A stretch of 64,000 nt of DNA. Source: Campylobacterales bacterium (GTDB taxonomy: Bacteria; Campylobacterota; Campylobacteria; Campylobacterales; QNZT01). Below, piece by piece: positions 17,259-64,000 of the stretch (positions are counted from its first letter, which is position 1; every line of letters starts with the position of its first letter). The position numbers were made by a program, and so were the translations under genes. Below the pieces are notes generated by a model. The model saw nothing but the letters and a program-made list of their open reading frames with translations, did no database searches and had not been told where the DNA came from. The stretch spans positions 41,907-105,906 of the forward strand of contig JAJRSK010000025.1 of the NCBI GenBank assembly GCA_024278835.1, written 5' to 3'.

Positions 17259-17268
17259 AGGAAAAACA

Positions 17269-17763: not shown

Positions 17764-17767
17764 ATAA

Positions 17768-18067: not shown

Positions 18068-18097
18068 CGCTAGGATTTTTAGGGTACCCATATTTAA

Positions 18098-23010: not shown

Positions 23011-23069
23011 CTTCATATATCATTCACTTTTTCTTGCTATAATATACCATCAAGCTAATGGGAGATTTT

Positions 23070-23291: not shown

Positions 23292-23294
23292 ATT

Positions 23295-23320
23295 AAAAGC
23301 TGAGCAACCGCCCAGCTTTT
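23295..23320. terminator. Bidirectional hairpin terminator
   Basis: AAAAGCTG-AGCAACCGCC-CAGCTTTT between convergent small genes. Confidence 0.5.
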
Positions 23321-23552: not shown

Positions 23553-23632
23553 ATAAATCCTTTTGAAGGTTAATGATATTAAAAGATTCCTTTTGACTTG
23601 CGAATAACAAGCCAAAAGGAGAAATAGAATGC

Positions 23633-24838: not shown

Positions 24839-24848
24839 ATCAATCTCC

Positions 24849-25412: not shown

Positions 25413-25414
25413 GA

Positions 25415-27814: not shown

Positions 27815-27986
27815 TTCTCCTTGAGTTTATTAGATGCACTGCCTTAATTAAGACAATATTTATCTTAATCATTAGTTTATCTTATAAATTATATCACTAA
27901 AAACAATAAAATTCGATGATTTAAATCAAGAAATTGTGTTTTTTTTACAATTTTTGCTTACTTTTATCGTCAGCTATAAGAAAGGC

Positions 27987-29132
27987 TTATTTTTTACGAT
28001 ACATTATTTCCATATCATCCAAAACACCAGATTCAAAATCTTTATGACATGCAGCGCAATTTGACTTATCTTTAATTTTTTTATCTCTATAGGCACTTCG
28101 TGGAATATGGCTATGTGTTACTCTCCAATATGGCGTTTTTGTAATTGCTTTTGGTCTTCTCTCTCCAAGAGAATCCATTATCTTTACTGCTGCTTCTCTA
28201 GTGGAGTGTTCTGCACTGTTTTGATATAAAAATTCTCGTATAGAGGCTTGTTTGGACATTGATATATTGGCATCTGTGATTTTTACACCAAAATGATTAT
28301 CTAAATCATCCATGACACGTTTCCATGATTTCTCGGGCAGCAAAAATGGTGGATAGATTTTGTGACAATCACCACACTCTTTAAAAAATACTGGATGTTC
28401 TGTAGCATAATCAATAGGAGTAAATTTACGCATTGTTAAAAAGTTATAATTAGAACTGATGATAAAAAAGTAACTTGCAATGGCAACCAATATCATGGAG
28501 TAGGCAAAAAAATTCAGGATTGGCTTCACCGATGTATCTTCACCATCTGTTTTCTTATATCCATTTATCATAGCAAACACCATGCCTGTCTTGTGCCAAA
28601 ACTGTTCTACCATAACCCCCGCTATGTGGATAATGACCCAAACTAAAAAAAGATAGGATGCATATCTGTGTATCCCATCTAGCATTCCCATATAGTGACT
28701 ATAATCATCGTTTAAATGCATAAAAAGCCCCTTACCTTCTTGTACACCATAAAGTAACAGCCCTGAAATAACAATAACAGTTCCCACCATCAATGCCCAT
28801 ACTGTGAACCAAGAAGAGGCGGGATTATGTCCCGCAGGAATCTTTCTCCATCTATTGGTTACTTTTAGAACAAAATACTCTTTTAATTGAGGCAAACTGA
28901 GTTTAAATGTATTAAATGTGGCGTATTTTGGTCCAATAATCCCCCAAATAACCCTATATATAATAATTGTTAAAAAGATAAAACCAAGTGCAACATGACT
29001 ATGTAACAAATAAGCATAAAATGAAGTGACAAATGCTGCAGTAAAAGAGAATGCCATCATCCAGTGGATGATACGTGTGCCTATAGGCCATACAAATACG
29101 TATCCGGGCTTTTTGTTCATAGTTCGTCCCAT
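27987..29132 (-). CDS. Fusion of a cytochrome b561-type membrane domain with a C-terminal diheme cytochrome c domain
   Basis: The N-terminal half is a His-containing 4-5 TM cytochrome-b-like domain. The C-terminal half has two CxxCH motifs (CGDCH, CAACH) in a DHC-like context. Confidence 0.6.
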   Translation of the reverse strand: MGRTMNKKPGYVFVWPIGTRIIHWMMAFSFTAAFVTSFYAYLLHSHVALGFIFLTIIIYRVIWGIIGPKYATFNTFKLSLPQLKEYFVLKVTNRWRKIPAGHNPASSWFTVWALMVGTVIVISGLLLYGVQEGKGLFMHLNDDYSHYMGMLDGIHRYASYLFLVWVIIHIAGVMVEQFWHKTGMVFAMINGYKKTDGEDTSVKPILNFFAYSMILVAIASYFFIISSNYNFLTMRKFTPIDYATEHPVFFKECGDCHKIYPPFLLPEKSWKRVMDDLDNHFGVKITDANISMSKQASIREFLYQNSAEHSTREAAVKIMDSLGERRPKAITKTPYWRVTHSHIPRSAYRDKKIKDKSNCAACHKDFESGVLDDMEIMYRKK

Positions 29133-29301
29133 ATATTTAAATTAAGTGGAAGTGTAGCATAGTTTTGTTGACGCAGTAATAAAACTTAAATGAGACAATT
29201 TTCGTCATTTTTGAGGATAAAAGGAGCGTAAGATAAAGAGAGAAATATTTGATATAGCTATAACCAAGAGAAAACTTTCCCTTGATTATATTATAAAACT
29301 A

Positions 29302-29682
29302 TTATTCAGGTTTTTTATAAAAACTTTTTTCTATAAATTCTGCCATTGCTTTAGGATCATAGTTATACCCTTTGTCTAGAAGCTTTTTCATGTTATGTTC
29401 CATCACATCGTGTTCTGTCCCAGAAGACTGGTTTGTTCCACCATTTTTAACATCATACAGATCAAGTTCTAACTCAGCAGCTTGTCTATCATTGAGTGCA
29501 GGTGCCTTTTTCTCAGTGATACCAGCACCATCAGCACCATGGCATTTCACACATGAACTATCGTAGACCTCTTTTGGCGATTTACTATATGTAACTTTTT
29601 CACCAGCATTAGGCGTTTGTGTACAGCCCGAAAATGTCAAGAGAGCAGCAACAGAGATTAATATTATATTCGTTTTTTTCAT
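29302..29682 (-). CDS. Monoheme c-type cytochrome lipoprotein
   Basis: The internal ATG at 29682 has an AAGGA Shine-Dalgarno sequence. Lipobox LLTFSG-C. Single CVKCH heme motif. Confidence 0.7.
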   Translation of the reverse strand: MKKTNIILISVAALLTFSGCTQTPNAGEKVTYSKSPKEVYDSSCVKCHGADGAGITEKKAPALNDRQAAELELDLYDVKNGGTNQSSGTEHDVMEHNMKKLLDKGYNYDPKAMAEFIEKSFYKKPE

Positions 29683-29713
29683 TATTTTTATCCTTTTTTC
29701 TTGTACTTGTTTC

Positions 29714-31186
29714 TTATGCACGGCCCGAAAGCATACCATATTGTGTCATTGGTTTAAGTGCGTATACTTTTAATAACCACCAGATATATCTCTCTTGTGT
29801 AGGGTCTAGAGGGAATGAAGGTGTTGGTTTTTTAGTCCAGTTAAACTCAGCCAACATAACAGTACCGATACTAGTGATAAGTGGACAAACCGTATAACCA
29901 GCATATTTTGCCGTCAACTCTTTGCCTTCCATTCTAGAGATAAGATTATCTACCACTACTTTATACTGCTTTCTTGCAGATCCACCTGTTTTACCCATAG
30001 GTACAGCAGCGATATCACCAAGTGCAAAAATATTATCAAATTTTACATGTTGTAATGTCTCTTTATTTACAGGAACCCAGCCTTTACCAGAACCAACTGG
30101 AGATTTTCCGATCTCTTCTGCTGCAACCATAGGAGGTGTAATATGCATAAAATCGTACTCTACTTCTACCTCTTTACTTTTCATCTCAACACCATACTCT
30201 TCAAGATCCTCATCCCAAGCACCTTTTTCTTTCCAATGTCTGTTGAATGTAGCAATCTTTTTCTCTGGGTTTACTTTGATAAGATTATGCCTATAGTTCC
30301 ACTTCATATCTCTTGCTTCAAATTGTTTTTGAATCGCATTATGATACTCAGTTACACCAAACATTTTACTACCGTTTGGATAGAAAGTAAGATCTGCATT
30401 TGCTCTAACACCTGCTTCTCTCAGTCTTGCATCTGTCAGATACATGATTTTCTTAGGAGCACCACCACATTTTACTGGTGTGTTTGGATGTGTAAATACA
30501 CCTTTTACTTTCTTGCCACTTTTTGCTTCTTCAATAAATTTTTGCATCTGTGTCCATGTGTCCACAGCACCATTAGCAAAATAGATTGAAGCAAGACCAT
30601 TTTTACCGATAACATGTCTTACAGCGCTATCATCACCACGTGTTGTAATCGATTCAGAGATACCAAGACCTTCGATTTTTGAGAAATCAAGTTTCAAACC
30701 AGCAGCTATAATCATAAAATCATATTTGATTGTTTTACCGCCACTTGTTGTAACCGAATTATTTGTAGGATCAAACTCCACAGCCTTCTCTTTAATCAAA
30801 GTAACGCCACTTGGTACAAAATCGTCTGTTTTGTAAGTAACATCATCGCCTGTCCACAAACCACCACCAACTAGTGTTTGTCCTGGTTGATATGATGTAG
30901 CAGTTTCACCCGGTTCAAGTACTGTAATATCAGGATTAGAAAGTGTATTTGACAATCTCGCCGCTGTTGACATACCTGCAAGTCCGCCACCAATGATAAG
31001 GATTTTACCATTTGCAGAACTAGCTCTTGCTTCCGTCGCCGCCTCCGCTTCTGTGCCAGCACCTAAAAGAAATGCCGTTGAACCCACTGCGGCCATCTTC
31101 ATAGCTTCTCTTCTTGAAACGCCATGCTTTCTTAATTCATCGCCAACCATGTCGACCATTTTTTTGATATCTTGTTCCTTGCTCAT
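29714..31186 (-). CDS. sqr: Sulfide:quinone oxidoreductase-family flavoprotein with a Tat signal
   Basis: SRREAMK twin-arginine signal. FAD motif IIGGGLAGM. SQR/SQRDL signatures PVKCGGAPKKIMYL and YTVCPLITSIGTVMLAEF. Confidence 0.75.
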   Translation of the reverse strand: MSKEQDIKKMVDMVGDELRKHGVSRREAMKMAAVGSTAFLLGAGTEAEAATEARASSANGKILIIGGGLAGMSTAARLSNTLSNPDITVLEPGETATSYQPGQTLVGGGLWTGDDVTYKTDDFVPSGVTLIKEKAVEFDPTNNSVTTSGGKTIKYDFMIIAAGLKLDFSKIEGLGISESITTRGDDSAVRHVIGKNGLASIYFANGAVDTWTQMQKFIEEAKSGKKVKGVFTHPNTPVKCGGAPKKIMYLTDARLREAGVRANADLTFYPNGSKMFGVTEYHNAIQKQFEARDMKWNYRHNLIKVNPEKKIATFNRHWKEKGAWDEDLEEYGVEMKSKEVEVEYDFMHITPPMVAAEEIGKSPVGSGKGWVPVNKETLQHVKFDNIFALGDIAAVPMGKTGGSARKQYKVVVDNLISRMEGKELTAKYAGYTVCPLITSIGTVMLAEFNWTKKPTPSFPLDPTQERYIWWLLKVYALKPMTQYGMLSGRA

Positions 31187-31361
31187 GCAGTTCCTTTATA
31201 ATTAAATGTGATGGAAATTGTATCCAATATTTTAGCAATGTCAACTGAATTGAAAAGAAAATAAATAATTATCTAGTTTTTTCGTCATTCGTTACAATTC
31301 TAGGAAAATATAGAGTTAAAAAAAACTTTAGATACAATAAATCTATACTAAAGGAACTATC

Positions 31362-49173: not shown

Positions 49174-49404
49174 ATGAAAAAAGCTATCAATATACGACTT
49201 GACGAATCCCTGCTTGGTGATTTGGATAATTATGCCAAAGAACTTGACAGAACAAGAACTTACATCATAGAAAAAGCAGTTACTGCATACTTCGATACAC
49301 TCGATGAAATGATAGCCGACCAAAGAATCGATGAGATTAAAAATGGCAATTCCACCCCAGTTTCACTCGAAGAGGTTTTTCAAAAAGCAGGTTTGAGTGT
49401 ATAA
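49174..49404 (+). CDS. Ribbon-helix-helix antitoxin (RelB/ParD/CopG-like)
   Basis: KKAINIRLDESLLGDLDNYAKE... RHH pattern. Overlaps the toxin start. Confidence 0.7.
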   Translation: MKKAINIRLDESLLGDLDNYAKELDRTRTYIIEKAVTAYFDTLDEMIADQRIDEIKNGNSTPVSLEEVFQKAGLSV

Positions 49405-49648
49405 AGTAGCATTTGATAAACATGCTCAAAAAGAGTTTTTAAAACTTGAAAAATCGGCACAAGAGCTAGTCTCTACAAAGATACTAGAATTACAAGATTG
49501 CATTTTTAAAAACGATAAAACACTCCAAGGAAAACACAAAGGAAAGTACCGAAAAAGAGCGGGAAATTATCGTATCATCTATCTTAAGGAAAACAAAATT
49601 GTGCTTATCACTATCATCCGAATCGCACATAGAAAAGAGGTTTATTAG
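49397..49648 (+). CDS. RelE/ParE-family toxin
   Basis: GTG start. C-terminal YRKRAGNYRIIYLKENKIVLITIIRIAHRKEVY. Confidence 0.75.
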   Translation: MYKVAFDKHAQKEFLKLEKSAQELVSTKILELQDCIFKNDKTLQGKHKGKYRKRAGNYRIIYLKENKIVLITIIRIAHRKEVY

Positions 49649-53714: not shown

Positions 53715-54275
53715 TTATAAATTTCGGTGGTCATGTGTCGCCATCGTGGGGTTGGCAAAATCTTCTATAATCTCCTCTAGTGAGACTTTAGAAGACTTTG
53801 ACTCTACTTGTATATCATGATAGGCTAAGACTTCTATGATTTTATCCACAAGAGAAGGGAAAGCATCTTTAACAACCTCAGTTAAATTGGCATCTACTGG
53901 GAGTATATCATCAGGTTTCATCGATACGATATCCACCTCAGCCATAGCATCATCTAAAAATGAACAGATTTCTAACATCATCAAAAGTTCTACTTCATTA
54001 GGGCTTTGTCTAGTATTTCCAAGGCTCATCATCTCTTCTACTGAAAAATGCGACACAGCACCAGAACTCTCTCCAACAGAAGTGGTACTAACAAGCAAGA
54101 CATAGTCATACTCTTGGAAATAGGGCATTAGGCTAAAACCAAATGTCCCGCCATCCATAACATCTACATTTTTGGGAAGTATGAAGTTCTTTTCTATATA
54201 GCTGGTAGCATAGACACCTAGTCCGTCATCATTAAACATGATGTTTCCTATCCCAATGAGTGCAACTCTCTTCAC
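53715..54275 (-). CDS. hydD: Hydrogenase maturation endopeptidase HydD
   Basis: GTG start. ALIGIGNIMFNDDGLGVY pattern. Follows hydC. Confidence 0.8.
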   Translation of the reverse strand: MKRVALIGIGNIMFNDDGLGVYATSYIEKNFILPKNVDVMDGGTFGFSLMPYFQEYDYVLLVSTTSVGESSGAVSHFSVEEMMSLGNTRQSPNEVELLMMLEICSFLDDAMAEVDIVSMKPDDILPVDANLTEVVKDAFPSLVDKIIEVLAYHDIQVESKSSKVSLEEIIEDFANPTMATHDHRNL

Positions 54276-54366
54276 ACATAACCTCTTTTTACATATTTAC
54301 TAAAGGAGGAAAATACTAAAAAATAGAGCTCTTGCTAGCACCACATCTTAATACTTTCAAAACATT

Positions 54367-54390
54367 GTGCTGATGTCATACCATCAGCAC
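54367..54390 (-). terminator. Hairpin (possible attenuator/terminator) between hydC and hydD
   Basis: GTGCTGATG-TCATAC-CATCAGCAC, followed on the minus strand by AAUGUUUUG. Confidence 0.4.
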
Positions 54391-54418
54391 AACTTACTTT
54401 ATGAACTGATTTTACACA

Positions 54419-54443
54419 CTATAATGAGCAAAGCCCATTATAG
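54419..54443. repeat. Intergenic hairpin repeat, copy C (opposite orientation)
   Basis: On the minus strand, CTATAATG-GGCTTTGCT-CATTATAG: the same loop as copies A and B with a third stem sequence. Confidence 0.5.
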
Positions 54444-54522
54444 CGGCAGGGACAAAATGTCCCTACGACCCCCTAAAGCTACGAAAAGTAGTACTTTTCG
54501 AGAAAATAGTGTGTAACAACAG

Positions 54523-55269
54523 TTATAACTTCTTTTTAGAATCCTCTTTGACAAACTTACTACCACCTACAACGATAGCGATATCACCCTCTTTCCAAAA
54601 GATAGTTCTCCATACTTGATAATAGATATGAAAAGCCACCCAAGTGATGATAAACCACATCGTATAGTGATGTACGATACGCACATCCATGATGTTTGTT
54701 CCTGTTGCTGTTGAACCAACCAATGATGAACTCACAGGCAATGTCCAATCCGTCACCGCATGCAACATCCAAGGCCACCAAGTACCGATGCTACTCTCTC
54801 CACTAGCTAATCCATGCACATAAAGTTGAAGCCCTGTAAAAAGCATCCAAGCAAGGAGCAGATGAAAAATCGTAAAATAGACCGTATTGAAACTATCTGC
54901 ATGTGAAGAGTCAAAGTTCTTTCTACGATTTAGCGTGATTAGATTTAAGAGAACTTCAAAAAACTCTTTTATATTTGTTGGCGTTGGCAATATCTTTTTC
55001 CACGGCTGTTCAAAACGCGAGAAAAAGAAGAGATACGCCACGATGATAGAAGTCACATCAAAGATAATAGCCACGATAAAGTGCCCCCATCTATTCCATG
55101 CCATCACATATTTATCCACCGCACCCTCAGCTATCAATGTCTGATAGTAAGGCGCTGCGATATAGAGTCCTGTGATAACTGCTACAATCATAGAGATAAC
55201 ATTGACCCAGTGGATGATACGCATCGCACCGGTCATTCTCTCTACTTTTTTATATCCTTTAGTATCCAT
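54523..55269 (-). CDS. hydC: [NiFe]-hydrogenase b-type cytochrome subunit
   Basis: 4-TM protein with conserved His ligands, directly downstream of the large subunit. Confidence 0.85.
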   Translation of the reverse strand: MDTKGYKKVERMTGAMRIIHWVNVISMIVAVITGLYIAAPYYQTLIAEGAVDKYVMAWNRWGHFIVAIIFDVTSIIVAYLFFFSRFEQPWKKILPTPTNIKEFFEVLLNLITLNRRKNFDSSHADSFNTVYFTIFHLLLAWMLFTGLQLYVHGLASGESSIGTWWPWMLHAVTDWTLPVSSSLVGSTATGTNIMDVRIVHHYTMWFIITWVAFHIYYQVWRTIFWKEGDIAIVVGGSKFVKEDSKKKL

Positions 55270-55278
55270 GATAGACTC

Positions 55279-57159
55279 CTAAAAAGTACAAGTAGGGTCA
55301 ACTTTATAAACAGCTAACTCCTTACCTTTGGTATCTACCACGTGCACAGCACAGGCGATACATGGATCAAAACTATGTACTGTTCTGATGATTTCTAGTG
55401 GCTCTTCTGGGTTTGCAACAACTGTTCCGATAATCGCTGCTTCATACGCCCCTACTTCACCATTTGGTCCACGAGGTCCTGCATTCCAAGTAGAAGGAAC
55501 GATAGCTTGGTAGTTAGAAACAAGACCATCCTTGACTCTTACCCAGTGACCAAGTGCACCACGAGGCGCTTCTGCAAGTCCACGACCTTTACAATCAGCA
55601 GAAACAGCATCAAAATCAAACTCAGTCCAAGTACTTAAATCTCCACCAGCTGCATTTGCCGCCAACTCATCTACCCACTCAACCATTATATCACCCATCA
55701 TCTCCGTTTCGATAGCGCGAGCTGCTGTTCTACCAACCGTTGAAAATAGTACAGTCAAAGGCAGACCTGAACTCTCAAGGAAGTTACCAGCATATTTTTT
55801 TATTCTCTCATCACCAGCAACATATCCAACGACGATACGCGCAAGAGGCCCAACCTCTACTTTTTGACCATCATAAAGAGGTGATTTAATCCAAGAATAT
55901 TTCTCATCTGTTTTCAGATAAGCATAACCATCATCTTTTTTATCAAGTCCTGTATATTTAGGAATTGTTGTACCATCATAAGGATGTTCAGGTGCACCTG
56001 TTCCTTCATACCAAGAGTGTGTCACATCTTCTGTGATTTTTGACTCATCAAGTTCATGCACTTTAGTGATATCTCCACCAAGCACTAAACCTCTTCCAAA
56101 CAGTGTTTTTGCCTTATAAAAACCAGTATCATCTAGTCTAAAGTCACCATAAGTCATATACGAGAGGATACCACCACCAGTACCACCCACTTCTTTACCA
56201 AGTGCGCCTTTGTGACTTGATGCATGAAAAGTTGCTGCACCATCTGTTGCCTCTGCTTTATACATCGTACCAGCCATATAGACATCTGGAAGATATGCAC
56301 CTTTGATAAACTCATTTGTCTCTTTGAGTAGTTGTTTAAAGAGTGCTATTCTTGCAGGATTTTGGATATCTTGTACACATGTGACACCACCAACAACGAT
56401 AGATTGTGGATGTGGATTTTTACCACCAAAGATTGCTTGCATCTTTGCCATCTCTCTTTGAACATCAAGTGCTTTAAGATAATGTGCTACACCGATAAGG
56501 TTTTGTTCTGGTGTTAGTTTATAGTTGTTGTTACCCCAGTAACCATTTCCAAAGATACCAAGTCTTCCCTCTTTAGCAAACTTAACAACCCTATCTTGAA
56601 TCGCTTTAAAATCTGCCTCAGCCGAGATATATGGCTTATGCCCTGCCACCTTAGCCCATTTAACTGCTTCAGCTGCTGTTTTAGCAGGATCTGCTTTTGT
56701 CGCTGAAAGGATATCAACAAAGTCAAGTGCATGAAGATGATAAAAGTGTACCAAGTGATCATGCACATACAATGCACCCTGAATCAAGTTTCTTACGATT
56801 CTTGCATTTTTAGGGATAGTGATATTAAAAGCATCTTCTACTGCTTCGATACTTCTTTGGTAGTGAGTACCAGTACAAACACCACAGATTCGCATCGTCA
56901 TCAAACCGACATCTCTAGGATCTCTGTTTTTAACGATAGTCTCAATCCCTCTAAACATCGTAGAAGAAGAGAATGCATCGACAATTTTATTATTTTCGTC
57001 GATAACTGCTTCGATACGAAGATGCCCTTCGATACGCGTGATTGGATCTACGATGATATGCTTTTTCCCACTGCTATCCGCCTTGTGAAAGTTTCCATCT
57101 GCACCATGTGCTTGCTCTTTTGTTGCTTCTACTGCTTGTGTTGTATTGTTTTCACTCAT
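55279..57159 (-). CDS. hydB: Membrane-bound uptake [NiFe]-hydrogenase large subunit
   Basis: N-terminal RICGVCTGTH. C-terminal DPCIACAVH followed by a cleavable extension (VVDTKGKELAVYKVDPTCTF). Confidence 0.95.
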   Translation of the reverse strand: MSENNTTQAVEATKEQAHGADGNFHKADSSGKKHIIVDPITRIEGHLRIEAVIDENNKIVDAFSSSTMFRGIETIVKNRDPRDVGLMTMRICGVCTGTHYQRSIEAVEDAFNITIPKNARIVRNLIQGALYVHDHLVHFYHLHALDFVDILSATKADPAKTAAEAVKWAKVAGHKPYISAEADFKAIQDRVVKFAKEGRLGIFGNGYWGNNNYKLTPEQNLIGVAHYLKALDVQREMAKMQAIFGGKNPHPQSIVVGGVTCVQDIQNPARIALFKQLLKETNEFIKGAYLPDVYMAGTMYKAEATDGAATFHASSHKGALGKEVGGTGGGILSYMTYGDFRLDDTGFYKAKTLFGRGLVLGGDITKVHELDESKITEDVTHSWYEGTGAPEHPYDGTTIPKYTGLDKKDDGYAYLKTDEKYSWIKSPLYDGQKVEVGPLARIVVGYVAGDERIKKYAGNFLESSGLPLTVLFSTVGRTAARAIETEMMGDIMVEWVDELAANAAGGDLSTWTEFDFDAVSADCKGRGLAEAPRGALGHWVRVKDGLVSNYQAIVPSTWNAGPRGPNGEVGAYEAAIIGTVVANPEEPLEIIRTVHSFDPCIACAVHVVDTKGKELAVYKVDPTCTF

Positions 57160-57160
57160 T

Positions 57161-58405
57161 TTACGCCTCCTCTTCTTCTACATGACTTTTTTTACCAGCT
57201 ACGATACTTGCTGCTGCATGGATACCGATACCGATACCCGCTGCGGTTAAGAGTCCTAAACCAAACTCATCAACTGTTTTTTCGACACCACCCGTAGGTG
57301 CTTTGATATTGGCATTTGCCATCGGTCTCTCATAGGCATATTTGTCCCAAAAATCAGGCTCAGAACAACCGATACAACCTCGTCCTACACCGATAGGCCA
57401 GTTAACCCCTTCGTTATAACGGACAATTGAGCAGTTATTAAATGTCATAGGACCTTTACAACCCATCTTATAAAGACAGAAATTGTTTTTCGCACCTTCA
57501 TCGCCCCACTCTTCTACAAATTCACCCGCATCAAAGTGTGCTCTTCTTTCACAGTTGTCATGGATTCTATACCCAAATGCAAACTTAGGACGAAGTAGTG
57601 AGTCAAGTTCAGGTACTTGACCAGTAAGAACAAAGTGTAAAATCACACCCACCATATTGGATGGATTGGCAGGACAAGCTGGTATATTGATAAGTGGTTT
57701 GCCTTGAACGATGTCCATCACACCAACAGCGTCTGTTGGATTTGGAGCAGCAGCAGGGATACCACCATAAGTCGCACAACTTCCAACAGCCACAACAGCC
57801 GCTGCATCTTTTGCTACTCTCTCAAGATGATCTTTAAATGTTTCAGCTTTTGCACCGATAGTTCCAAACTGCCCATCTATACCCAATGGAATCGCACCTT
57901 CAACAAAAAGGAGATACTTCCCTTTAAAGTGTTCTATCGCCTCTTCCATCTGCTTTTCTGCTTGGTGTCCAGAAGCGGCTTGTAGTGTTTCGTGAAACTC
58001 TAGTGAGATGATGTCAAGAACGATTTCATCAATCTTTGGTCCATCACTTCTTAGTAGTGCTTCAGAGTTTCCAGCACAATCAGAAAGCTCCATCCATATC
58101 ACAGGCACACGATTCATCAATACAGCCGCTTCTGCGACAAGTGGAGAGAAAGAAGCAGGTAGCATCAACATCGCTGTTGTTGCAGAGACCCACTTTAAAA
58201 AATCACGACGATCAAGACCCTCATCGGAAATCGCTTGTTTAAAATCGATTCTGTTGTTCATCACAGGAAGTGCTTTTAATTCATCAAGTCTCGCTCTACA
58301 CTGTGCATAAAGCGCATCATAATACGCCTCACCTCTGTTGGTATCTACTTTTGCACTCTGAGAGGTGAAAAGTTTTTTAACTGATTCAAACCGCTTATCG
58401 CTCAT
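57161..58405 (-). CDS. hydA: Membrane-bound uptake [NiFe]-hydrogenase small subunit (Tat-exported)
   Basis: RRDFLKW twin-arginine motif, Fe-S Cys ligands and a C-terminal TM anchor. Strong AAGGAG Shine-Dalgarno sequence. Confidence 0.95.
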   Translation of the reverse strand: MSDKRFESVKKLFTSQSAKVDTNRGEAYYDALYAQCRARLDELKALPVMNNRIDFKQAISDEGLDRRDFLKWVSATTAMLMLPASFSPLVAEAAVLMNRVPVIWMELSDCAGNSEALLRSDGPKIDEIVLDIISLEFHETLQAASGHQAEKQMEEAIEHFKGKYLLFVEGAIPLGIDGQFGTIGAKAETFKDHLERVAKDAAAVVAVGSCATYGGIPAAAPNPTDAVGVMDIVQGKPLINIPACPANPSNMVGVILHFVLTGQVPELDSLLRPKFAFGYRIHDNCERRAHFDAGEFVEEWGDEGAKNNFCLYKMGCKGPMTFNNCSIVRYNEGVNWPIGVGRGCIGCSEPDFWDKYAYERPMANANIKAPTGGVEKTVDEFGLGLLTAAGIGIGIHAAASIVAGKKSHVEEEEA

Positions 58406-58428
58406 GAAACGCTCCTTGTTTTTATAAA

Positions 58429-58442
58429 TGAATAATCATTCA
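58429..58442. promoter_or_regulatory. Fur-box-like element upstream of hydA
   Basis: TGAATAATCATTCA contains the ATAATCATT core of the Fur consensus GATAATGATAATCATTATC. It lies about 25 nt upstream of the hydA start. Confidence 0.3.
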
Positions 58443-58515
58443 TATTGTAAAGGATTTTTTCTTAATTCAAGGTAAAATATAATAAAAAGTTATAATAGGA
58501 CTATTTTAGTCTGAA

Positions 58516-59811
58516 TTAGTGCGTCGTACAAACAGAGCAAACATCAAAGGTTTTGAAAACAAACTCTGCTAGTTTTTCATCGCTTAAGCCTAACATCGCT
58601 TGTTGAGAGATACCTGGTGTTTCTCTATCGCCATTGCTTAGATTCCATTGTGTGGGTGTTATCATCTGATAGTTTCTGATAATCCCCTCCTCTAGTGTGA
58701 CTTTATGGATAAGTGAACCTCGCGCTGCTTCGACTGCTCCCACCCCAAATCCACTTAGTTTTTTGATATCTACCTCTGGCTTGATGTACGAAGGCTCACT
58801 CAAATCTATCTCTTTTAAAAGTGTCAAAGAGTGGTGTAGTAGTTGCAGTATCTCACAAGTTCGTGCTATGATACGAGAAAAGAGACTATCCCCATGTCGT
58901 CTATGTGATGCTTTGATGAGTGGGGTTTTTAAGAGCATCGCACGGCTGAGGGGGCCTACTTCGTAGTATTTTCCTTTATACATGACATTTTTAGCAAGGG
59001 AGTCCACATTGTCAAAGAGTTGCAGGTGGGATTCATCGATGCGTTCTTGCACGCGTGTTTTGAGTGATTTTCCTCTTTTAAAATAGGAACTTTCCCCAAA
59101 AACGATAAATCTATCAAAACTTTTCCCCAAATCTTCCCAACCATTTTTGATAATTGTATTGAGCATATAGGGCAAATCCCCCTCTTTGGAGAGTAGTGTC
59201 TCAATATTTTCACAAGAGAGTAACTTCTCACTCTCTGCCACAACGATATGCGTTTCAAAAAATTGCAAAGTCTCTTCAAGGATATTTTTCACTTGCAATA
59301 TCTCTAAGCCAGTCGGTTCACAAACCACACCACCCACGATGGCATAAGAGTTGTGTGGATACTGCCCTGCTAGATGTGCGATGGCTTTGGACATCAATCC
59401 ACTAGGCTTAGCAGCATGCATAATCTTCTGTTTCTCACCTAAAAGTGGCAAAAGCGTGAGATAAAACCACTTAAAATGGTTTTGAATGAGTTCAAAATTG
59501 AGTGTTAATTCGCGTAATATCTTTGCCTTGTTGCTTATCATGATAGAGGGATAACAGGCTTCTAGTGCTTTGACAGAGGCTTGCAGATGGGCATGTCCAC
59601 AGATACCACACACGCGTGGGGTAATCGTCAAGGCATCGAGTGCTGGTTTTGATTTGAGTATCTCTTCCATCCCACGACCCGAAAGAAACGCGATATCCAC
59701 AAAAGAGATTTTATCCTCTTCAAAATGAAAATTGAGTGTCGCCTCCCCTTCAATCTTCTCTATCAACTTTTTTACCGCAATCTTTTTACTCATCAAACAG
59801 ATCCTTTTCAA
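58516..59811 (-). CDS. Cytoplasmic group-2-like [NiFe]-hydrogenase large subunit
   Basis: PRVCGICGHAH N-terminal motif. The protein ends exactly at DVCSVCTTH, with no C-terminal extension. Confidence 0.8.
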   Translation of the reverse strand: MKRICLMSKKIAVKKLIEKIEGEATLNFHFEEDKISFVDIAFLSGRGMEEILKSKPALDALTITPRVCGICGHAHLQASVKALEACYPSIMISNKAKILRELTLNFELIQNHFKWFYLTLLPLLGEKQKIMHAAKPSGLMSKAIAHLAGQYPHNSYAIVGGVVCEPTGLEILQVKNILEETLQFFETHIVVAESEKLLSCENIETLLSKEGDLPYMLNTIIKNGWEDLGKSFDRFIVFGESSYFKRGKSLKTRVQERIDESHLQLFDNVDSLAKNVMYKGKYYEVGPLSRAMLLKTPLIKASHRRHGDSLFSRIIARTCEILQLLHHSLTLLKEIDLSEPSYIKPEVDIKKLSGFGVGAVEAARGSLIHKVTLEEGIIRNYQMITPTQWNLSNGDRETPGISQQAMLGLSDEKLAEFVFKTFDVCSVCTTH

Positions 59812-60655
59812 GTCTCTCTATCTTAAAAGCTTTTGTCACACCACTCAAAGTCAGATACGCCCGCTTGGGTACACCTAGTGGCAAAGTGTGCGGGATACCC
59901 ATGTTTTTCTTCGTAGTAAAAAGATTTTGTTTTGGGAAAGAGGGCTCCGTACATCCCATACATGGTTGCCCTGCTCTGGTTTTGGAGTTTACTTCATTCC
60001 ATAAAATCTTATTGCAACTCCCATGGGTATATGGTGCTTGGCAGCCATGGTCATAAAACATACACCCCTCTTTTTTACCAAAACTGTGGTCATCTATCTT
60101 GTATTCAAAATATTCATTTCTCGTGCAGCCATTATGTACGGTGTAAGAAAAAAACTCTTTAGGACGGTGATACTTATCTAAATTTAGGGTGATTTCATCG
60201 CGTATCATATAGAGCGTATTTGCCAAGAGATCAGGATGGATAGGACAGCCAGAGATACTCACTACCTTATCATGATAGGCAAACTCCCTACGCACCTCTT
60301 CTGTAAAGAGTAATCCACCACTATCATGATAGGGACTCTCTTTAAAGATTCCGCCAAAAGTAGAACAAGTCCCAACCGTCACAATCTTTTTGACATGTGG
60401 GGCATAAAGGTTGATGATATCAACGATTGACTCTCCTGCCCGTTTAAACTCCGAAGAGATAGAACCTTCGATGAGCAATATATCACTATCATGATAGCTT
60501 CTTACCATCTCTTCTAAGCTATAAGCACTATCAAAGAGAGGATGATGCACAAAGCTAAAATCTTCTAAAAATTTTTCAAGATGTGGATAATTTAAAAATG
60601 AGTGTGTATTGCCATTGCAGGCAATGCCTTGTAGCCAGAAAAGTTTAGGTTTCAT
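59786..60655 (-). CDS. Cytoplasmic group-2-like [NiFe]-hydrogenase small subunit (no Tat signal)
   Basis: The likely start MKPKLFWLQGIACNGN lacks any signal peptide. Fe-S Cys ligands are present. Confidence 0.8.
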   Translation of the reverse strand: MKPKLFWLQGIACNGNTHSFLNYPHLEKFLEDFSFVHHPLFDSAYSLEEMVRSYHDSDILLIEGSISSEFKRAGESIVDIINLYAPHVKKIVTVGTCSTFGGIFKESPYHDSGGLLFTEEVRREFAYHDKVVSISGCPIHPDLLANTLYMIRDEITLNLDKYHRPKEFFSYTVHNGCTRNEYFEYKIDDHSFGKKEGCMFYDHGCQAPYTHGSCNKILWNEVNSKTRAGQPCMGCTEPSFPKQNLFTTKKNMGIPHTLPLGVPKRAYLTLSGVTKAFKIERLEKDLFDE

Positions 60656-61244
60656 AAGAGCGCAACGCTTGGTAGATATTATTTGCGATATCATCAACAT
60701 AGTTATCTAAACTTTTAGGCAATATCTCTTCACCTTTTAGAAAAACCATGCCACCAAGATAGCCCATAAAGAGCCCAAATGCAGAGAAAAAATCTTGATC
60801 TCTAAGCTCCCCTTTCTCCACACCCTCTTCAAAAAATATCATAATTTCTGTCACAAAATCACTCACACAAATCATCCCCTCACAACCATCTTTAAAGACT
60901 TCACGATTTGAGAGATAGACACGCAAAAAATACTCAATCATCTCTGGCTCTTTTTGCGCGATAGTAAAATAGGTCGTAACAAAAGCGTGAATTTTCTCTT
61001 TTCAAGATAACTCTTGTTCATTGATTTTTCTAAGCTCTTTTCCAAGATAGGTAGAGATATATTTGATAATTTCCTTGGCTAAAATATCTTTGGATTTGAA
61101 GTAGTTGTACATATTGCCCACACTCATGTTGAGGGCTTTAGCGATATCAGGAATCGTCGTCGAATAAAAACCATCTGCAGAAAAAAGCTTGAGTGCCCCT
61201 ATCATGATAGACTCTTTTCGCTGCTCTTTGCTTGGTTTTGCCAT
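60645..61244 (-). pseudogene. TetR-family regulator interrupted by one in-frame TGA
   Basis: The N-terminal HTH ORF (61005..61244) and the C-terminal ORF are in the same frame, separated only by TGA at 61002..61004 (...NEQELS*KEKIHAFVTTYF...). Confidence 0.65.
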
Positions 61245-61394
61245 AAAAATCCTCTCTTTTACATTAGTATAGCAAAGAGAAGCTTTTTATGTTTTTAGAG
61301 GTGCCCTTGAGATTAAAAAATATTATGTGTAACAAAAAATGTAAATAGCCTCATGAACACCTAAGATATCGAACTTTATTATCTTGATATAATA

Positions 61395-61451
61395 AAAAGT
61401 GTAAATAAACCACCTTCCTCAGTAACATTTACTATATTTATTTACACTTTT
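61395..61451. promoter_or_regulatory. 15-bp perfect inverted repeat (TGTAAATA boxes) between the helicase 3' end and the TetR promoter
   Basis: AAAAGTGTAAATAAA-N27-TTTATTTACACTTTT. A further TGTAAATA copy lies at 61340..61347. Confidence 0.4.
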
Positions 61452-61523
61452 CATATTACACTATCCATAACAAGTTGCATGTTGAACAATGCTAAATCTC
61501 TTTTGAGATTATTGTTATAAAAC

Positions 61524-63611
61524 TCACAACAACACAGAACGCTCACCATACGATGTAATCAAAAGAGACTTCTTCGCCCTTGTAGCTGCTACAAAAACTA
61601 AAGATTTTTCTTTTAGTAGTCTTTCATCTTCTATTTGAGTTTCTTCTGATTTTTCACCTATTTCTAGTGGTACTACCCTATCATTCATACTTGCTATTAT
61701 CACATGGTCAAAATCAAGCCCTTTAACTCTATGCATAGTCGCTAGTCTTATAGCATCATTGGATAAATTATCTTTTGAATTTCTTGAGATTTTAAGTGTA
61801 TCGATACTATTTTCTGCAAAATAACTATCGTAACTATTTACTAGTTTTTGAGTTCTTACAACTATACAAATTCGGCTCTCTTTATGCTCATCTTTGATAC
61901 TTTTAATGTATTGATTTATAAACTCTACCTCTTCTTCATAGCTTTCAAAAAATTCAAGTTTTGGTTCTGGTCCATGGTATAGCGATTTATAATCCCCACT
62001 ACTATCGACTCCATCATCCAAGTTGTCAAAAGTTTCACCCTCCAAAAGTGATACTGCCCACTTTCGTATCTCGTCTGTTGTTCTATAATTAAGTTTTAGT
62101 TTTTTACTTCTTCCTACTATTTTTATGCCACATTGTCCAAGTACTACTTTGTGCCCATAAATTCTTTGATGTGCATCACCTACAACGAATATATCATTTT
62201 TTGCCTCTTCTACCATTTCTCTTAATAGCATAAAAGATTGTGCTGTTAAGTCTTGTGCCTCATCCACTATAATTGAAGAATACTTTTCTTTCATTTTCTC
62301 ATTATCTATCAAGATCCTAGCATCTCTCATTGCATCGCTTGGCTCTTTATAATTTTTAGCTGATAATAGTAATCTATACTCTTCAAAAACTTCCCATATT
62401 AATTTTCGTTGCTTTCTATTTAGCCTCGTACCTCTACCTACTCTTGATGCACCTATGTAGTCATTTATAGTATTAACAGATTGTGGCTGTATAACACGCT
62501 CCCACTCCTCTTTAAAAAAGCTATCAGGTAAATCCAGCTCACTTGGTTTAGACACTAGTGCTTTTTCCCATATAGCCTTTGTTTTATCATTATATACTAT
62601 CTCATTTTGATATCCATTTTTAGACAAAAACTCATATACCCATTGGTCTAAATTCTTTACTTCGATTTTATTTAGAGTCTCTTCATCACATATTTTTCTC
62701 AAATTCTCATATATATCAATCGCTAAATTTTTAGTGTAAGTAGTAAAGAGTATCTTTTTTGCATCAAATAAACTTGCTTTTTGTGCAAGATATTTTGCTC
62801 TGTGCATGGCAACGACTGTTTTACCTGTTCCAGCACCTCCTAACACTCTGACTGGTCCATTATAGTCTCTCTCAACAAGTTTTCTTTGTGTTGGATGTAG
62901 AAAAACTCTCCACTTCTCTAGTGGAGCATTAAGCATATTTATAAGCTCTGTATCATTCTCTTCTACAACATAAAAATGTCTTTTAGAACTATCATTATCC
63001 AATGCTTTGGTAAAGTTATCTGTATCTACTGCTTCTGAACTTGCAGTATAAATATAATTATACACCTCTTCAAAGTCATCTCCTGCTAACAGATAAAATA
63101 ACCCCTCATAAACTTCTTCAGGAAGATACTCTCTTATGGCATCTAAATCAGCCTCATTATCAATACTTCTAACATGCTCAAGCATCTCATCTAGAACACC
63201 TATTTTTAATAACTCTTTATCTTTAAATTTTGTAAAAAATGTCTCTTTTTTCTCTGTGACATTAACTGAAATTTTTTCTATCTCTTTTTCTACTTGAATA
63301 ATCTGCAAGCTACCTGTTTCGGGATTTACCATACATTTATGTTTCTTTGCCCAATCGTATGCTTCATCATGATTATCTACCCAAAGTAAAATATAAACAT
63401 CATCTTTTTGAGGGCTCATAACTATGCATCTATACGCACTATCTACCCTTATAGAGTGCATGTTTGGAGCAAAGTGCAATTTTTCATAATTTAATCCTGT
63501 TGATTTAGGATTGTTTTTAAACTTCTCTACTAACCTTATAGTTTTATTTAATTGTGTTCTTGGAAGTTTTGCAAGTGCTGTAAAAAAGTCTGATGAGATA
63601 GCTACTTTCAT
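61524..63611 (-). CDS. SF1 UvrD-like helicase with an N-terminal RelE/ParE-like domain
   Basis: Helicase motifs GGAGTGKT, IIVDEAQDL, VVGDAHQRIY, YRTT, TMHRVKGLDFDHVII and VAATRAKKSL. The N-terminal 95 aa follow the RelE/ParE pattern (IRVDSAYRCIVMSPQKDDVYILLWVDNHDEAY). Confidence 0.75.
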   Translation of the reverse strand: MKVAISSDFFTALAKLPRTQLNKTIRLVEKFKNNPKSTGLNYEKLHFAPNMHSIRVDSAYRCIVMSPQKDDVYILLWVDNHDEAYDWAKKHKCMVNPETGSLQIIQVEKEIEKISVNVTEKKETFFTKFKDKELLKIGVLDEMLEHVRSIDNEADLDAIREYLPEEVYEGLFYLLAGDDFEEVYNYIYTASSEAVDTDNFTKALDNDSSKRHFYVVEENDTELINMLNAPLEKWRVFLHPTQRKLVERDYNGPVRVLGGAGTGKTVVAMHRAKYLAQKASLFDAKKILFTTYTKNLAIDIYENLRKICDEETLNKIEVKNLDQWVYEFLSKNGYQNEIVYNDKTKAIWEKALVSKPSELDLPDSFFKEEWERVIQPQSVNTINDYIGASRVGRGTRLNRKQRKLIWEVFEEYRLLLSAKNYKEPSDAMRDARILIDNEKMKEKYSSIIVDEAQDLTAQSFMLLREMVEEAKNDIFVVGDAHQRIYGHKVVLGQCGIKIVGRSKKLKLNYRTTDEIRKWAVSLLEGETFDNLDDGVDSSGDYKSLYHGPEPKLEFFESYEEEVEFINQYIKSIKDEHKESRICIVVRTQKLVNSYDSYFAENSIDTLKISRNSKDNLSNDAIRLATMHRVKGLDFDHVIIASMNDRVVPLEIGEKSEETQIEDERLLKEKSLVFVAATRAKKSLLITSYGERSVLL

Positions 63612-64000
63612 GTTTGTATCCTTTGCTCTATAGTTTTTATAATTTTATCACTTTCTTGTATGTGAAATATATCCCAACCATCTAGTTTGATATCGGGCTT
63701 TATTGTGATAGCGATGTTTAGTTCTTTCCATATCAACTCTGCTTCTTCTTCATTTTCAAGTTCCTCACCAACTAAAGGAACTGGGATATTTATATTTTTA
63801 GAGAGCTGTTTGACAAGTTCTTTGGCTATAGCTTGAACTTCTTCATAAACAAACCCCCACTCTTCATTTGTATCATCTTTTTTACCAAAAGGTATATCAT
63901 CATAAAGATTTTCATTTATTCCTTTTGTTGTTGTAAAAAAACTATTTTCCAAAAACTGCGTTACATTATAAAGTCGAAGTAATCCAGCCCATGATTTAAA
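63608..64000 (-). CDS. 3' part of an unknown gene co-transcribed with the helicase (5' end outside window)
   Basis: The frame stays open to the window edge (...FKSWAGLLRLYNVTQFLENSFF...). 4-nt ATGA overlap with the helicase start. Acidic; no family recognised. Confidence 0.5.
   Translation of the reverse strand, partial: FKSWAGLLRLYNVTQFLENSFFTTTKGINENLYDDIPFGKKDDTNEEWGFVYEEVQAIAKELVKQLSKNINIPVPLVGEELENEEEAELIWKELNIAITIKPDIKLDGWDIFHIQESDKIIKTIEQRIQT

Follow-up and report, generated by a model that had tools for sequence, protein, structure and literature searches.

ARMADA is a bacterial anti-phage immune system that was first described in 2025 (Bell et al. 2025 preprint, PMC12458937; bioRxiv 10.1101/2025.09.22.677730). 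Its type II variant, represented by E. coli NCTC 12900 and by OI-172 of strain EDL933, is composed of ArmA, ArmB, ArmC and ArmD; all four are needed in E. coli, and importance was shown for the ATPase motif of each of the three helicases (the Walker A motif of ArmD included) and for the methyltransferase motif of ArmB (PMC12458937; bioRxiv 10.1101/2025.09.22.677730). Infected E. coli cells survive, which indicates direct, non-abortive protection, and in EDL933 deletion of armD cost less protection than deletion of armA, armB or armC (PMC12458937; bioRxiv 10.1101/2025.09.22.677730). In this type ArmA is a BrxHII/SNF2-like helicase, ArmB a PglX-like methyltransferase and ArmC a YprA-like DEAD/DEAH helicase with OB-CON-DUF1998 and C-terminal Vsr-type nuclease domain(s). 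ArmD of this type was described as a "GajB-like UvrD helicase with N-terminal RelE-like domain" (Bell et al. 2025, PMC12458937). A strict gene order was reported for the system, and Actinomycetota and Pseudomonadota were given as the phyla in which it is most abundant, Campylobacterota being unmentioned (PMC12458937).

The window, i.e. the whole 64,000-nucleotide stretch of DNA analysed here, ends with a region (61524-64000, minus strand) that very probably belongs to an ARMADA type II anti-phage operon, of which it comprises the distal part, namely the end of armC and the whole of armD. The feature singled out by the first-pass annotation is genuine, but the system to which it belongs already has a name, and the statement that no named system could be matched has to be withdrawn: the helicase is ArmD and the fragment next to it is the C-terminus of ArmC (PMC12458937). 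ArmD of the window aligned with that of E. coli EDL933 (Z5902; the genome used for comparison was NZ_CP008957) over residues 2-695 versus 7-701, with 46% identity and 641 bits. This assignment is based on pairwise homology and two preprints, without a curated profile, because ARMADA models are absent from both PADLOC-DB 2.0.0 and NCBIfam. It turns what would be annotated as a 'UvrD-helicase domain protein' and a 'DEAD/DEAH helicase' into a defined defence system.

The armC and armD genes and the edge of the block

The window ends inside armC, so that most of this gene, as well as any armA and armB of the source genome, would fall outside it. What is present of armC is its 3' end (63608..64000, minus strand), namely the last 130 codons and the TGA stop of a gene for a YprA/DruE-like helicase-nuclease of about 2050 aa. 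The frame, read directly, stays open all the way from 63611 to base 64000, where the window ends, and the TTG 'start' listed for this upstream ORF is therefore an artefact of the edge. The fragment is indeed acidic (25 D/E versus 14 K/R) and runs off the window as the first-pass annotation had stated; nevertheless, the 'unknown acidic partner' is not a small protein but the last 130 residues of a very large one. With residues 1927-2056 of the complete ArmC from one of the related loci (denoted here by L and a number), L003, it shares 80% identity. The latter protein contains DEAD, Helicase_C and MZB/DUF1998 domains, and aligned with E. coli EDL933 ArmC over about 2100 columns with 36% identity and 1332 bits. 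The armC product is thus predicted to be a very large DEAD-box helicase of the YprA/DruE-like kind, which carries a DUF1998 zinc module and, at its C-terminus, domains of nuclease type; this presupposes an intact N-terminal part of ~1920 residues in the source genome, where the fragment alone was read.

The final ~80 residues of ArmC make up a small conserved domain (P.P.VG.EL...AEL.W...K.A...GW), which is kept across phyla. Its profile matched the C-terminus of ZorE (hhalign 95.9%, E 5e-9), hinting at a docking or regulatory module shared by these proteins, and its pattern appears to resemble an inactivated Vsr/DUF559 motif. Comparison of the C-terminal profile with PDB sequences returned chance matches only, none of them credible, and a protein search with the 130-aa fragment gave just two short matches; AF2 modelling of this fragment, with an alignment of just 3 sequences, reached a pLDDT of 42.5, too low to be of use.

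The armD gene (61524..63611, minus strand) is complete and encodes 695 aa, in which an N-terminal RelE-like domain, a middle region and a UvrD/GajB-like SF1 helicase follow one another. The UvrD-type motif set reported earlier was located in the core, formed by residues 236-695 (61524..62906 including the stop codon, minus strand), where Pfam recognised UvrD-helicase at residues 239-487 (E 1e-26), UvrD_C (E 1e-23) and AAA_19. The motifs are Walker A, GGAGTGKT, at residues 258-265 (62817-62840, minus strand, with K264), Ia, TYTKNLA, at 291-297, Walker B, DEAQD, at 450-454 (62250-62264, minus strand, with D450), III, GDAHQRIY, at 478-485, and VAATRAKK at 674-681. Pairwise alignment equates K264 and D450 with K266 and D454 of E. 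coli ArmD, in which the K266A substitution abolished defence and D454N weakened it (PMC12458937). The middle region, residues 107-235 (62907..63293, minus strand), is mostly helical, aligns with E. coli ArmD and was modelled by AF2 with pLDDT of 86-97 across most of residues 121-220; a Pfam search with it gave no match. Campylobacterota contain full-length homologues of ArmD that are 56-95% identical to it. ORFs on the plus strand of 61524-64000 are all of 53 aa or less, and a gene on that strand was therefore rejected.

The stop codon of armC and the start codon of armD overlap in ATGA (63608-63611, minus strand; read directly), as the first-pass annotation had indicated. A 4-nt or 1-nt overlap of the two genes is found also in E. 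coli EDL933 (L026, 46799-46802), L003, L005 and L010-L019, and such coupling fits joint production of ArmC and ArmD, which probably form a complex.

The armC-armD block was horizontally acquired, which is evident from its low G+C content, from the end of homology just past the armD stop and from its variable flanks. The G+C content is 31.8% in 61245-64000 versus 39.2% in 1-61244, and GC3 of armD is 0.22 versus 0.31-0.42 in neighbouring genes, in agreement with the A+T-richness and the laterally acquired look noted before. DNA homology with the closest cassettes (L001-L004, 86-93% identical) ends 4-14 nt past the armD stop, at 61520/61510; genes downstream of armD differ in every relative, and integrases adjoin armA in L028, L030 and L031. 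An A+T-rich spacer (61245..61523) separates armD from a TetR-family gene; its armD-proximal end marks the right-hand boundary of the acquired block. An A+T-rich hairpin (61392..61454, minus strand) follows the armD stop at a distance of 70 nt and is itself followed by UUUUUAUUAU. The inverted repeat described previously as 15 bp long is present, although this length corresponds to its perfect core; the arms (61392-61409 and 61437-61454) are actually of 18 nt and 94% complementary. Folding of the RNA from 61375-61530 (minus strand) gave -36.7 kcal/mol (z = -4.35) with the hairpin stem as the dominant helix, and this structure is probably the intrinsic terminator of the operon; a G+C-based terminator scan did not detect the hairpin. 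The palindrome TATCATGATA, of which there are 42 copies in the window versus 0.12 expected, is truly missing from 61245-64000, as had been observed. Its absence is uninformative, because a stretch of 2.76 kb is expected to hold only about 1.8 copies and palindrome-free gaps of 8-10 kb exist elsewhere; hence, it was rejected as a sign of foreign origin.

The RelE/YoeB-like domain of ArmD

Residues 1-106 of ArmD (63294..63611, minus strand) fold as a RelE/YoeB-type domain according to AF2 and Foldseek. The RelE/ParE pattern that the first-pass annotation saw in the first ~95 residues is sub-threshold in sequence libraries (ParE_like, E 0.037; YoeB TIGR02116, E 0.026) and in comparison of the N-terminal profile with PDB sequences (YoeB, 0.007; RelE3, 0.023), and hhalign of this profile against single YoeB/RelE sequences gave a probability below 1%, its residue pairings serving just as a guide. 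AF2 modelled residues 1-235 confidently (pLDDT 87.9, pTM 0.83); pLDDT is mostly 89-95 over residues 1-100 and 82 at residues 61-70. When the N-terminal model was compared with the PDB by Foldseek, the top 30 matches were without exception RelE/YoeB/YafQ/ParE-family toxins (target TM 0.52-0.75, mostly 0.6-0.75; probability 0.99-1.00; rmsd 2.5-4.7 Å, the best ones 2.5-3.2 Å), and HigB2, Cami1 (ranks 31, 45 and 50) and HigB appeared further down. The ORF at 49397-49648, named earlier as a RelE/ParE toxin, is a genuine one (Pfam ParE_toxin, 29 bits versus a cut-off of 23). Identity of the ArmD domain as a free RelBE, YefM-YoeB or ParDE toxin-antitoxin was rejected, since it forms the N-terminal part of a protein of 695 aa, and no small (antitoxin-like) gene was found between armC and armD at their junction.

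The putative catalytic residues are E43, R55, R61, H81 and Y85. Among 150 ArmD-family representatives less than 50% identical to one another, the first four are retained in 149/151, 148/150, 150/151 and 148/150 cases, respectively, and their equivalents in E. coli ArmD are E48, R62, R68 and H88. In the best 150 family representatives, which range from 620 to 923 aa or else are fragments of continuously varying length, the domain is always N-terminal. ArmD of Arcobacter caeni carries R55F and H81C, therefore the putative catalytic site is not retained in every member. In L015 and L017 the place of the RelE-like domain is taken by DUF4145, which we take to be HEPN-related.

As a working model, ArmB would mark host DNA, as BREX and DISARM do, while ArmA and ArmC would be loaded onto invading DNA without the mark and move along it, and a putative Vsr-type nuclease of ArmC would cut that DNA. 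ArmD could then be an auxiliary motor moving with ArmC. Its RelE-like domain (E43, R55, R61, H81 and mostly Y85) would most likely cleave RNA, e.g. nascent or ribosome-bound phage transcripts at the target; a role as a nucleic-acid sensor instead is less likely. A ribosome-dependent RNase in ArmD fits poorly with the non-abortive phenotype that was reported, and RNase activity of the strongly conserved YoeB-type catalytic set, inside a supposedly non-abortive system, would be a testable lead.

A different explanation, which we consider unlikely, is that the RelE-like domain is a restrained toxin and ArmD a fused toxin-antitoxin-like Abi effector that halts translation on sensing phage DNA. The RelE/YoeB fold with near-invariant catalytic-type residues speaks in its favour, as do the presence among the structural matches of Cami1, a RelE-fold ribosome-dependent RNase acting as a CRISPR ancillary effector, and the swap for DUF4145 in L015 and L017. 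Nevertheless, E. coli cells with ARMADA II remained intact after infection and the phage-induced metabolic rise of controls was largely absent in them (propidium iodide and resazurin assays), which was read by the authors as protection without host metabolic shutdown (PMC12458937). Moreover, no antitoxin gene is adjacent to armD, and there is no report of ArmD toxicity. The earlier suggestion of an anti-phage or abortive-infection module stands in its anti-phage part, whereas its abortive part is unsupported for the ARMADA II family, because the published E. coli experiments show direct, non-abortive protection.

Gene order upstream of armC

In all related loci armC lies directly upstream of armD. 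ArmA (SNF2, SNF2-rel_dom; 936-948 aa) and ArmB (PglX-like, Eco57I/MmeI_Mtase; ~1608-1625 aa) are encoded upstream in L027-L032, the C-terminus of ArmB is found also in L005 and L011, and ArmB of L010 is 41% identical to that of Dechloromonas. The operon was correctly described as coupled to an upstream gene, but in relatives it consists of four or more genes rather than two. All nine Campylobacterota loci (9/9) contain 2-9 extra genes, spanning 3-10 kb, between armB and armC, with the order and orientation of the arm genes retained. The inserted genes are variable, co-directional defence genes, with start and stop codons that often overlap; complete PsyrTA, AbiEi/AbiEii, RES, Fic, Schlafen-AlbA2, PRTase and a CARF-like protein were seen, and a 1085-aa SWI2/SNF2 protein is recurrent. 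The cargo of L031, upstream of armC, includes a 544-aa ABC-ATPase/DUF4435 protein, which is possibly OLD-like. Contiguous A-B-C-D arrays occur in L013 (with a 1.2-kb gap), L015, L017, L018, L022 and E. coli, and in Amycolatopsis L019 an Mrr gene is inserted. Defence genes intervening between armB and armC are unmentioned in the ARMADA preprints (PMC12458937; bioRxiv 10.1101/2025.09.22.677730).

By analogy with these loci, armA and armB would be expected upstream of the window, with a few kb of accessory defence genes before armC. One could argue instead that armC-armD is a module of just two genes, either independent or a remnant, that is inactive or devoid of methylation self-marking, with armA and armB absent or distant. 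The window does end at 64000, within armC, and the 4-10 kb upstream of armC in L003 and L012 hold other defence genes only, therefore armB can be far from armC. Such a module is, however, quite improbable: armA-armB are present on every contig that is long enough (L027-L032; L005 and L011 show the C-terminal part of ArmB), on the L012 contig armB was found 9.5 kb upstream, in at least 15 cases ArmB and ArmD homologues occur on contigs of equal size, and the four genes are all essential in E. coli (PMC12458937).

Returning to a complete ARMADA II operon, in Campylobacterota, and sporadically elsewhere (the Mrr gene of Amycolatopsis), it may be a split scaffold, armA-armB and armC-armD flanking a slot, with the junction as a dedicated site of accessory-immunity exchange; we regard this proposal as evenly balanced. 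If it is true, the inserted genes would be co-transcribed with the effector half and similar cargo should lie in the DNA just past the window. ARMADA would in that case act as a carrier, with toxin-type (abortive) modules layered within a system that targets DNA and is itself non-abortive; to this system the near-invariant RelE/YoeB residues of ArmD would add a putative RNA-cleaving arm. That the armB/armC junction behaves as a cargo slot in Campylobacterota is a testable lead.

Comparison with known systems

A Gabija-like or Druantia-like system, as the PADLOC labels would have it, is highly improbable. ArmD matched GajB with 7.5e-33, among the best PADLOC profiles and tied with the NERD+UvrD model C3a187, and the partner, in its L003 version, matched DruE1 (1.7e-114) and DruE3 (3.4e-95). 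No GajA/OLD nuclease accompanies the helicase, however: a GajA-like gene adjoining the armC-armD pair was not found in any related locus, and the neighbours in the window are ArmC and the TetR-family gene. DruA-D, DruH and DruM/F/G were not found in the related loci either (L003, L005, L010-L013 and L027-L032), and of the two E. coli proteins ArmC and DruE, which are encoded as neighbours, the partner is far nearer to ArmC (1332 bits), DruE giving local matches only (112 and 102 bits). GajB proteins are, by description, devoid of the RelE-like domain (PMC12458937). Running PADLOC, as proposed earlier, is misleading with PADLOC-DB 2.0.0, since 2023-era profiles label the armC/armD pair as orphan GajB and DruE. 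DISARM was rejected as well; there is no PLD nuclease. There is a negligible probability that ArmD has a housekeeping role in repair or recombination, as a UvrD, Rep, PcrA, helicase IV or HelD encoded at a conserved core locus. The NCBIfam PcrA, Rep and UvrD models do match it (E 1e-19 to 1e-26), but with 68-91 bits against curated cut-offs of 911-1144, about ten times higher; in addition, every relative has different genes on the flanks, the base composition of the block is foreign and the invariable partner of armD is a defence-type YprA helicase.

The individual parts of the locus have counterparts in several known systems. With the toxins RelE, YoeB, YafQ, ParE, HigB and Cami1, ArmD shares the fold of residues 1 to ~90 (target TM up to 0.75) and, with YoeB, the Glu/Arg/Arg/His/Tyr set at positions aligning with E46, R65, H83 and Y84. 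It differs from free toxins of this family (~90 aa) by fusion in cis to a 590-aa helicase, two extra beta-strands (91-106), the lack of an antitoxin gene alongside and sequence similarity that is sub-threshold (E 0.007-0.04). Like GajB, ArmD has an SF1 UvrD-type helicase core, but it carries in addition the RelE-like domain and the helical linker, and is paired with a YprA-family protein and not with GajA. ArmC shares the DEAD, Helicase_C and DUF1998/MZB core with Druantia DruE and DISARM DrmA+DrmB, and matches DruE profiles strongly, whereas its loci are devoid of DruA-D, DruH and the PLD nuclease, and ArmC itself is the orthologue of E. coli ArmC. In comparison with E. coli ARMADA II, the locus is different in belonging to Campylobacterota, in its A+T-rich armC, whose ~2050-aa product is ~60 residues shorter than the E. 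coli protein, and in that strict contiguity of A-B-C-D is not kept in its nine Campylobacterota relatives. On the other hand, ArmD matches its E. coli counterpart in length and in domain layout, from the RelE-like N-terminus through the helical linker to the UvrD core, with Walker A and B at equivalent positions, ArmC architecture is common to E. coli and the close relative (36% identity), the start-stop overlap of armC and armD is shared, and ArmA and ArmB are found in relatives of the window locus.

The armC-armD end of a four-gene defense system

The minus-strand reading frame at 61524-63611 encodes a 695-aa protein. Its residues 239-487 match Pfam UvrD-helicase (E 1e-26), and its C-terminal part matches UvrD_C. 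The full UvrD-type motif set ascribed to it in the first-pass annotation could be located, with the Walker A motif GGAGTGKT at residues 258-265, TYTKNLA at 291-297, DEAQD at 450-454, GDAHQRIY at 478-485 and VAATRAKK at 674-681. The partner gene had been described as acidic and as running off the window edge after an ATGA overlap. Indeed, its frame is open from that overlap (63608-63611) through the final base, so the gene continues past the edge, and its 130 visible residues contain 25 D/E versus 14 K/R.

In every related contig, the gene directly upstream of armD overlaps it by 4 nt and encodes a protein of ~2050 aa with DEAD, Helicase_C and MZB/DUF1998 domains, labeled DruE by PADLOC (DruE1 1.7e-114). 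One such protein is ArmC of the related locus L003, and its C-terminus and the 130-aa fragment in the window share 80% identity. Many Campylobacterota, among them Sulfurimonas, Halarcobacter and Hydrogenimonas, encode full-length ArmD homologues at 56-95% identity, some of which JGI already annotates as 'superfamily I helicase/RelE'.

Bell et al. 2025 (PMC12458937) defined ARMADA type II by four proteins: the helicase ArmA, which resembles BrxHII/SNF2; the PglX-like methyltransferase ArmB; ArmC, a YprA-like helicase that carries Vsr-type nuclease domains at its C-terminus; and ArmD, a GajB-like UvrD helicase whose N-terminus holds a RelE-like domain. As a reference we used the experimentally studied locus of E. 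coli EDL933, z5899-z5902. The window ArmD is 46% identical to the E. coli protein over its whole length (641 bits), and its K264 and D450 are aligned to K266 and D454, the residues that were mutated in E. coli. L003 ArmC matches E. coli ArmC at 36% identity over ~2100 columns (1332 bits), versus local similarity only (112 bits) to the neighboring E. coli DruE. The E. coli armC and armD genes likewise overlap by 4 nt. Because of this homology of both proteins and the shared overlap, the feature is identified as the distal part of an ARMADA type II locus, comprising the 3' end of armC and armD. Those traits of the system that can be assessed in the window were all found: ArmD has the expected architecture and is an orthologue, and the ArmC C-terminus is present and coupled to it. 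ArmA and ArmB are present in relatives of the locus. The feature noticed earlier is real and was described correctly, and the named system to which it could not be matched at first is ARMADA type II, named in 2025.

A separate observation concerns the last ~80 residues of ArmC (window ~63611-63850, minus strand), whose conservation extends across Campylobacterota, Actinomycetota and E. coli. The Zorya II effector ZorE (EDL933 locus L026, 19084-20187, minus strand) has a homologous domain at its C-terminus, residues 277-353 of 367, as supported by an hhalign probability of 95.9% (E 5e-9) and an NCBIfam ZorE match at E 6.5e-4. Zorya II and ARMADA II co-localize and synergize in E. coli. The shared domain is mentioned in neither ARMADA preprint, and this homology, which lies largely outside the window, may be new.

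The RelE/YoeB-like domain of ArmD

The N-terminus of ArmD gave only sub-threshold matches in sequence libraries (ParE_like, E 0.037; YoeB, E 0.026), and the best PDB sequences for a profile of 13 diverse ArmD N-termini were YoeB (0.007), M. jannaschii RelE3 (0.023) and an archaeal RelE (0.17). The AF2 model of residues 1-235, built from 69 homologues, is confident (pLDDT 87.9, pTM 0.83) and has the topology beta-alpha-alpha-beta-beta-beta-beta-alpha, with two additional strands followed by a helical region. When it was compared with the PDB by Foldseek, all of the top 30 matches were toxins of the RelE, YoeB, YafQ or ParE families, at target TM 0.52-0.75 (mostly 0.6-0.75), probability 0.99-1.00 and rmsd 2.5-4.7 A (2.5-3.2 A for the best ones); HigB2, Cami1 and HigB appeared further down the list. 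The domain therefore has a RelE/YoeB fold by this model, which bears out the RelE/ParE pattern read from the sequence at first. The ORF at 49397-49648 (plus strand), which had served there as a bona fide toxin for comparison, is one by Pfam as well, scoring 29 bits for ParE_toxin (cut-off 23; E 1.7e-6).

A search with the RelE-like domain alone against 1.84 billion cluster representatives yielded 1161 relatives at E <= 1e-3, 396 of them at E <= 1e-10. Among the best 150 of the 1161, the domain is N-terminal in every protein; 53 of these proteins are 620-923 aa long and the others spread continuously in fragment-like lengths, with no peak found at toxin size. In the same set E43 (149/151), R55 (148/150), R61 (150/151) and H81 (148/150) are near-invariant, and position 85 holds Y in 120 proteins and M in 26. 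Such conservation argues for a conserved putative active site and not a decayed structural domain. HMM and hhalign alignments place the conserved residues on what we take to be YoeB E46, R65, H83 and Y84 and RelE Y60-R61. The counterparts of E43, R55, R61 and H81 in E. coli ArmD are E48, R62, R68 and H88.

Two departures from this pattern were seen in relatives. ArmD of Arcobacter caeni (L010, 16147-16470) carries R55F, D57E and H81C in the otherwise near-invariant motif; in this one lineage, whose locus also has PsyrTA, the presumed catalytic site may no longer be active. In a Myxococcota MAG (L015, 16381-19008) and an Enterobacterales MAG (L017, 16453-19233), the helicase at the ArmD position is 875-926 aa long and bears an N-terminal DUF4145 (E 2.5e-6 and 4.7e-8, respectively) in place of the RelE-like domain, which amounts to a domain swap. 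DUF4145 is presumably HEPN-related, and would then be a second type of RNase domain at this position.

Surroundings of armD

The impression that the block at 61245-64000 is richer in A+T than its neighbors was confirmed, with 31.8% G+C versus 39.2% in the remaining window, and GC3 of 0.22 in armD versus 0.31-0.42 in the adjacent hydrogenase and TetR genes. At the DNA level, the window and its closest relatives cease to be homologous 4-14 nt past the armD stop codon, so armD marks the far edge of a mobile block, which here adjoins a TetR-family gene and a NiFe-hydrogenase cluster. The 414-aa small subunit of the hydrogenase is encoded at 57161-58405. Integrases adjoin armA in three Campylobacterota loci.

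The inverted repeat reported in the AT-rich spacer is real, with 18-nt arms at 61392-61409 and 61437-61454 and one mismatch. As RNA it forms the main stem of a segment whose folding is far more stable than that of shuffled sequences (z = -4.35), and a U-rich run follows. Because of this strong stem and the run after it, the hairpin is probably the operon terminator. The spacer (61332-61454) also contains three copies of TATTTACA(C/T)TTTT, two of which make up the hairpin and the third of which lies at 61335-61347; apart from any terminator role, these may serve the neighboring TetR-family gene as operators. That gene (60645-61244, minus strand), just downstream of armD, is a single 199-codon frame broken by an in-frame TGA at 61002-61004 (...NEQELS*KEKIHAF...), which makes it a pseudogene, a sequencing error or a case of read-through. 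An 18-nt palindrome (61242-61259 / 61274-61291) covers its start codon and ribosome-binding site.

The 10-bp palindrome TATCATGATA, often embedded in the longer form CTATCATGATAG, occurs 42 times in the 64 kb, versus 0.12 expected from shuffles, between 8459 and 61209 (last copy at 61200-61209), many times within coding regions. Speculatively, it might act in DNA uptake, bind a protein or be a target of modification. The block does lack it, as noted earlier, but this carries no weight, because a block of this size should hold just ~1.8 copies and the window has longer stretches free of it (1-8458, 21310-31357 and 53823-59535). Another repeat family, D2, lies at 17015-17249, where an 83-nt unit is repeated three times in tandem with a period of 76 nt, the copies being 86-100% identical.

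Possible mechanism and gene order in relatives

In an E. coli plasmid system, loss of any one of the four genes abolished protection, as did Walker A/B mutations in ArmA and ArmC, Walker A mutation in ArmD and mutations of the ArmB NPPW motif, while ArmD D454N and ArmB G605A weakened it (PMC12458937). Infected cells were impermeable to propidium iodide and mostly did not display the phage-induced resazurin rise of controls, which the authors read as direct, non-abortive defense with no host metabolic shutdown (PMC12458937). In native EDL933, the armD deletion was less sensitive than the other deletions (PMC12458937; bioRxiv 10.1101/2025.09.22.677730). One plausible scheme would have ArmB mark self DNA, as in BREX and DISARM, and ArmA and ArmC act on unmarked DNA, which the Vsr-type domain of ArmC would cut. 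The coupled start would allow ArmD, a second motor, to be made in step with ArmC, and the coupling implies that the two may form a complex. The RelE-like domain might be a locally acting RNase that attacks transcripts, or mRNA on ribosomes, as they emerge from the DNA under attack; we propose this with low confidence, on the basis of residue conservation.

Upstream genes of the relatives were recovered by a genome scan with the ArmC N-terminus and look-ups of ArmB homologues. The contiguous canonical A-B-C-D order is found in Dechloromonas, a Myxococcota MAG, Enterobacterales MAGs, Ferrithrix and E. coli. In all nine Campylobacterota loci examined, gene order and orientation are kept, and 3-10 kb of variable co-directional defense genes lie between armB and armC. 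Arcobacter caeni has a complete PsyrTA (PsyrT 5e-287, PsyrA 3e-131) and a Schlafen-AlbA2 protein there; a Helicobacteraceae MAG has a methylase, PRTase, ORC/CDC6-like, CARF-like and Fic proteins and AbiEi/AbiEii; Halarcobacter (L005) has RES and Fic; Malaciobacter marinus a 1107-aa protein and Fic; and Sulfurimonas SNF2, SF1-like and sacsin-like proteins. At L029, L031 and L032 a 1085-aa SWI2/SNF2 protein recurs, with 66-70% identity from locus to locus, together with RES, a DUF4435-ATPase or AbiEii. In L003, AbiEi/AbiEii lie upstream of armC and the contig ends before armB, and in Amycolatopsis (L019) an Mrr gene is inserted at the junction. The intervals are L027 (A. caeni) 14865-19834, L028 12373-22370, L029 14845-20439, L030 14851-18974, L031 14826-21449, L032 14824-20022, L005 505-3585, L011 480-9984, L003 677-2378 and L019 8814-9668. 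Since the region past the window edge is unseen, similar accessory content upstream of armC in the window genome is an expectation only, by analogy with these relatives.

In A. caeni (L027, 6072-7085), a gene for a WYL/WCX (BrxR-like) regulator is located directly upstream of armA, a position at which such regulators are common in BREX-type systems.

Gabija, Druantia, a free toxin-antitoxin pair and a housekeeping helicase were rejected as identities of the feature, each missing at least one defining trait. According to the ARMADA preprints (PMC12458937; bioRxiv 10.1101/2025.09.22.677730) the gene order is strict, and they make no mention of Campylobacterota or of genes intervening between armB and armC; the putative cargo slot at this junction, largely outside the window, may be new. 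ARMADA type II is the closest known system to the feature; its strict contiguous order is not kept in the Campylobacterota relatives of the window locus.
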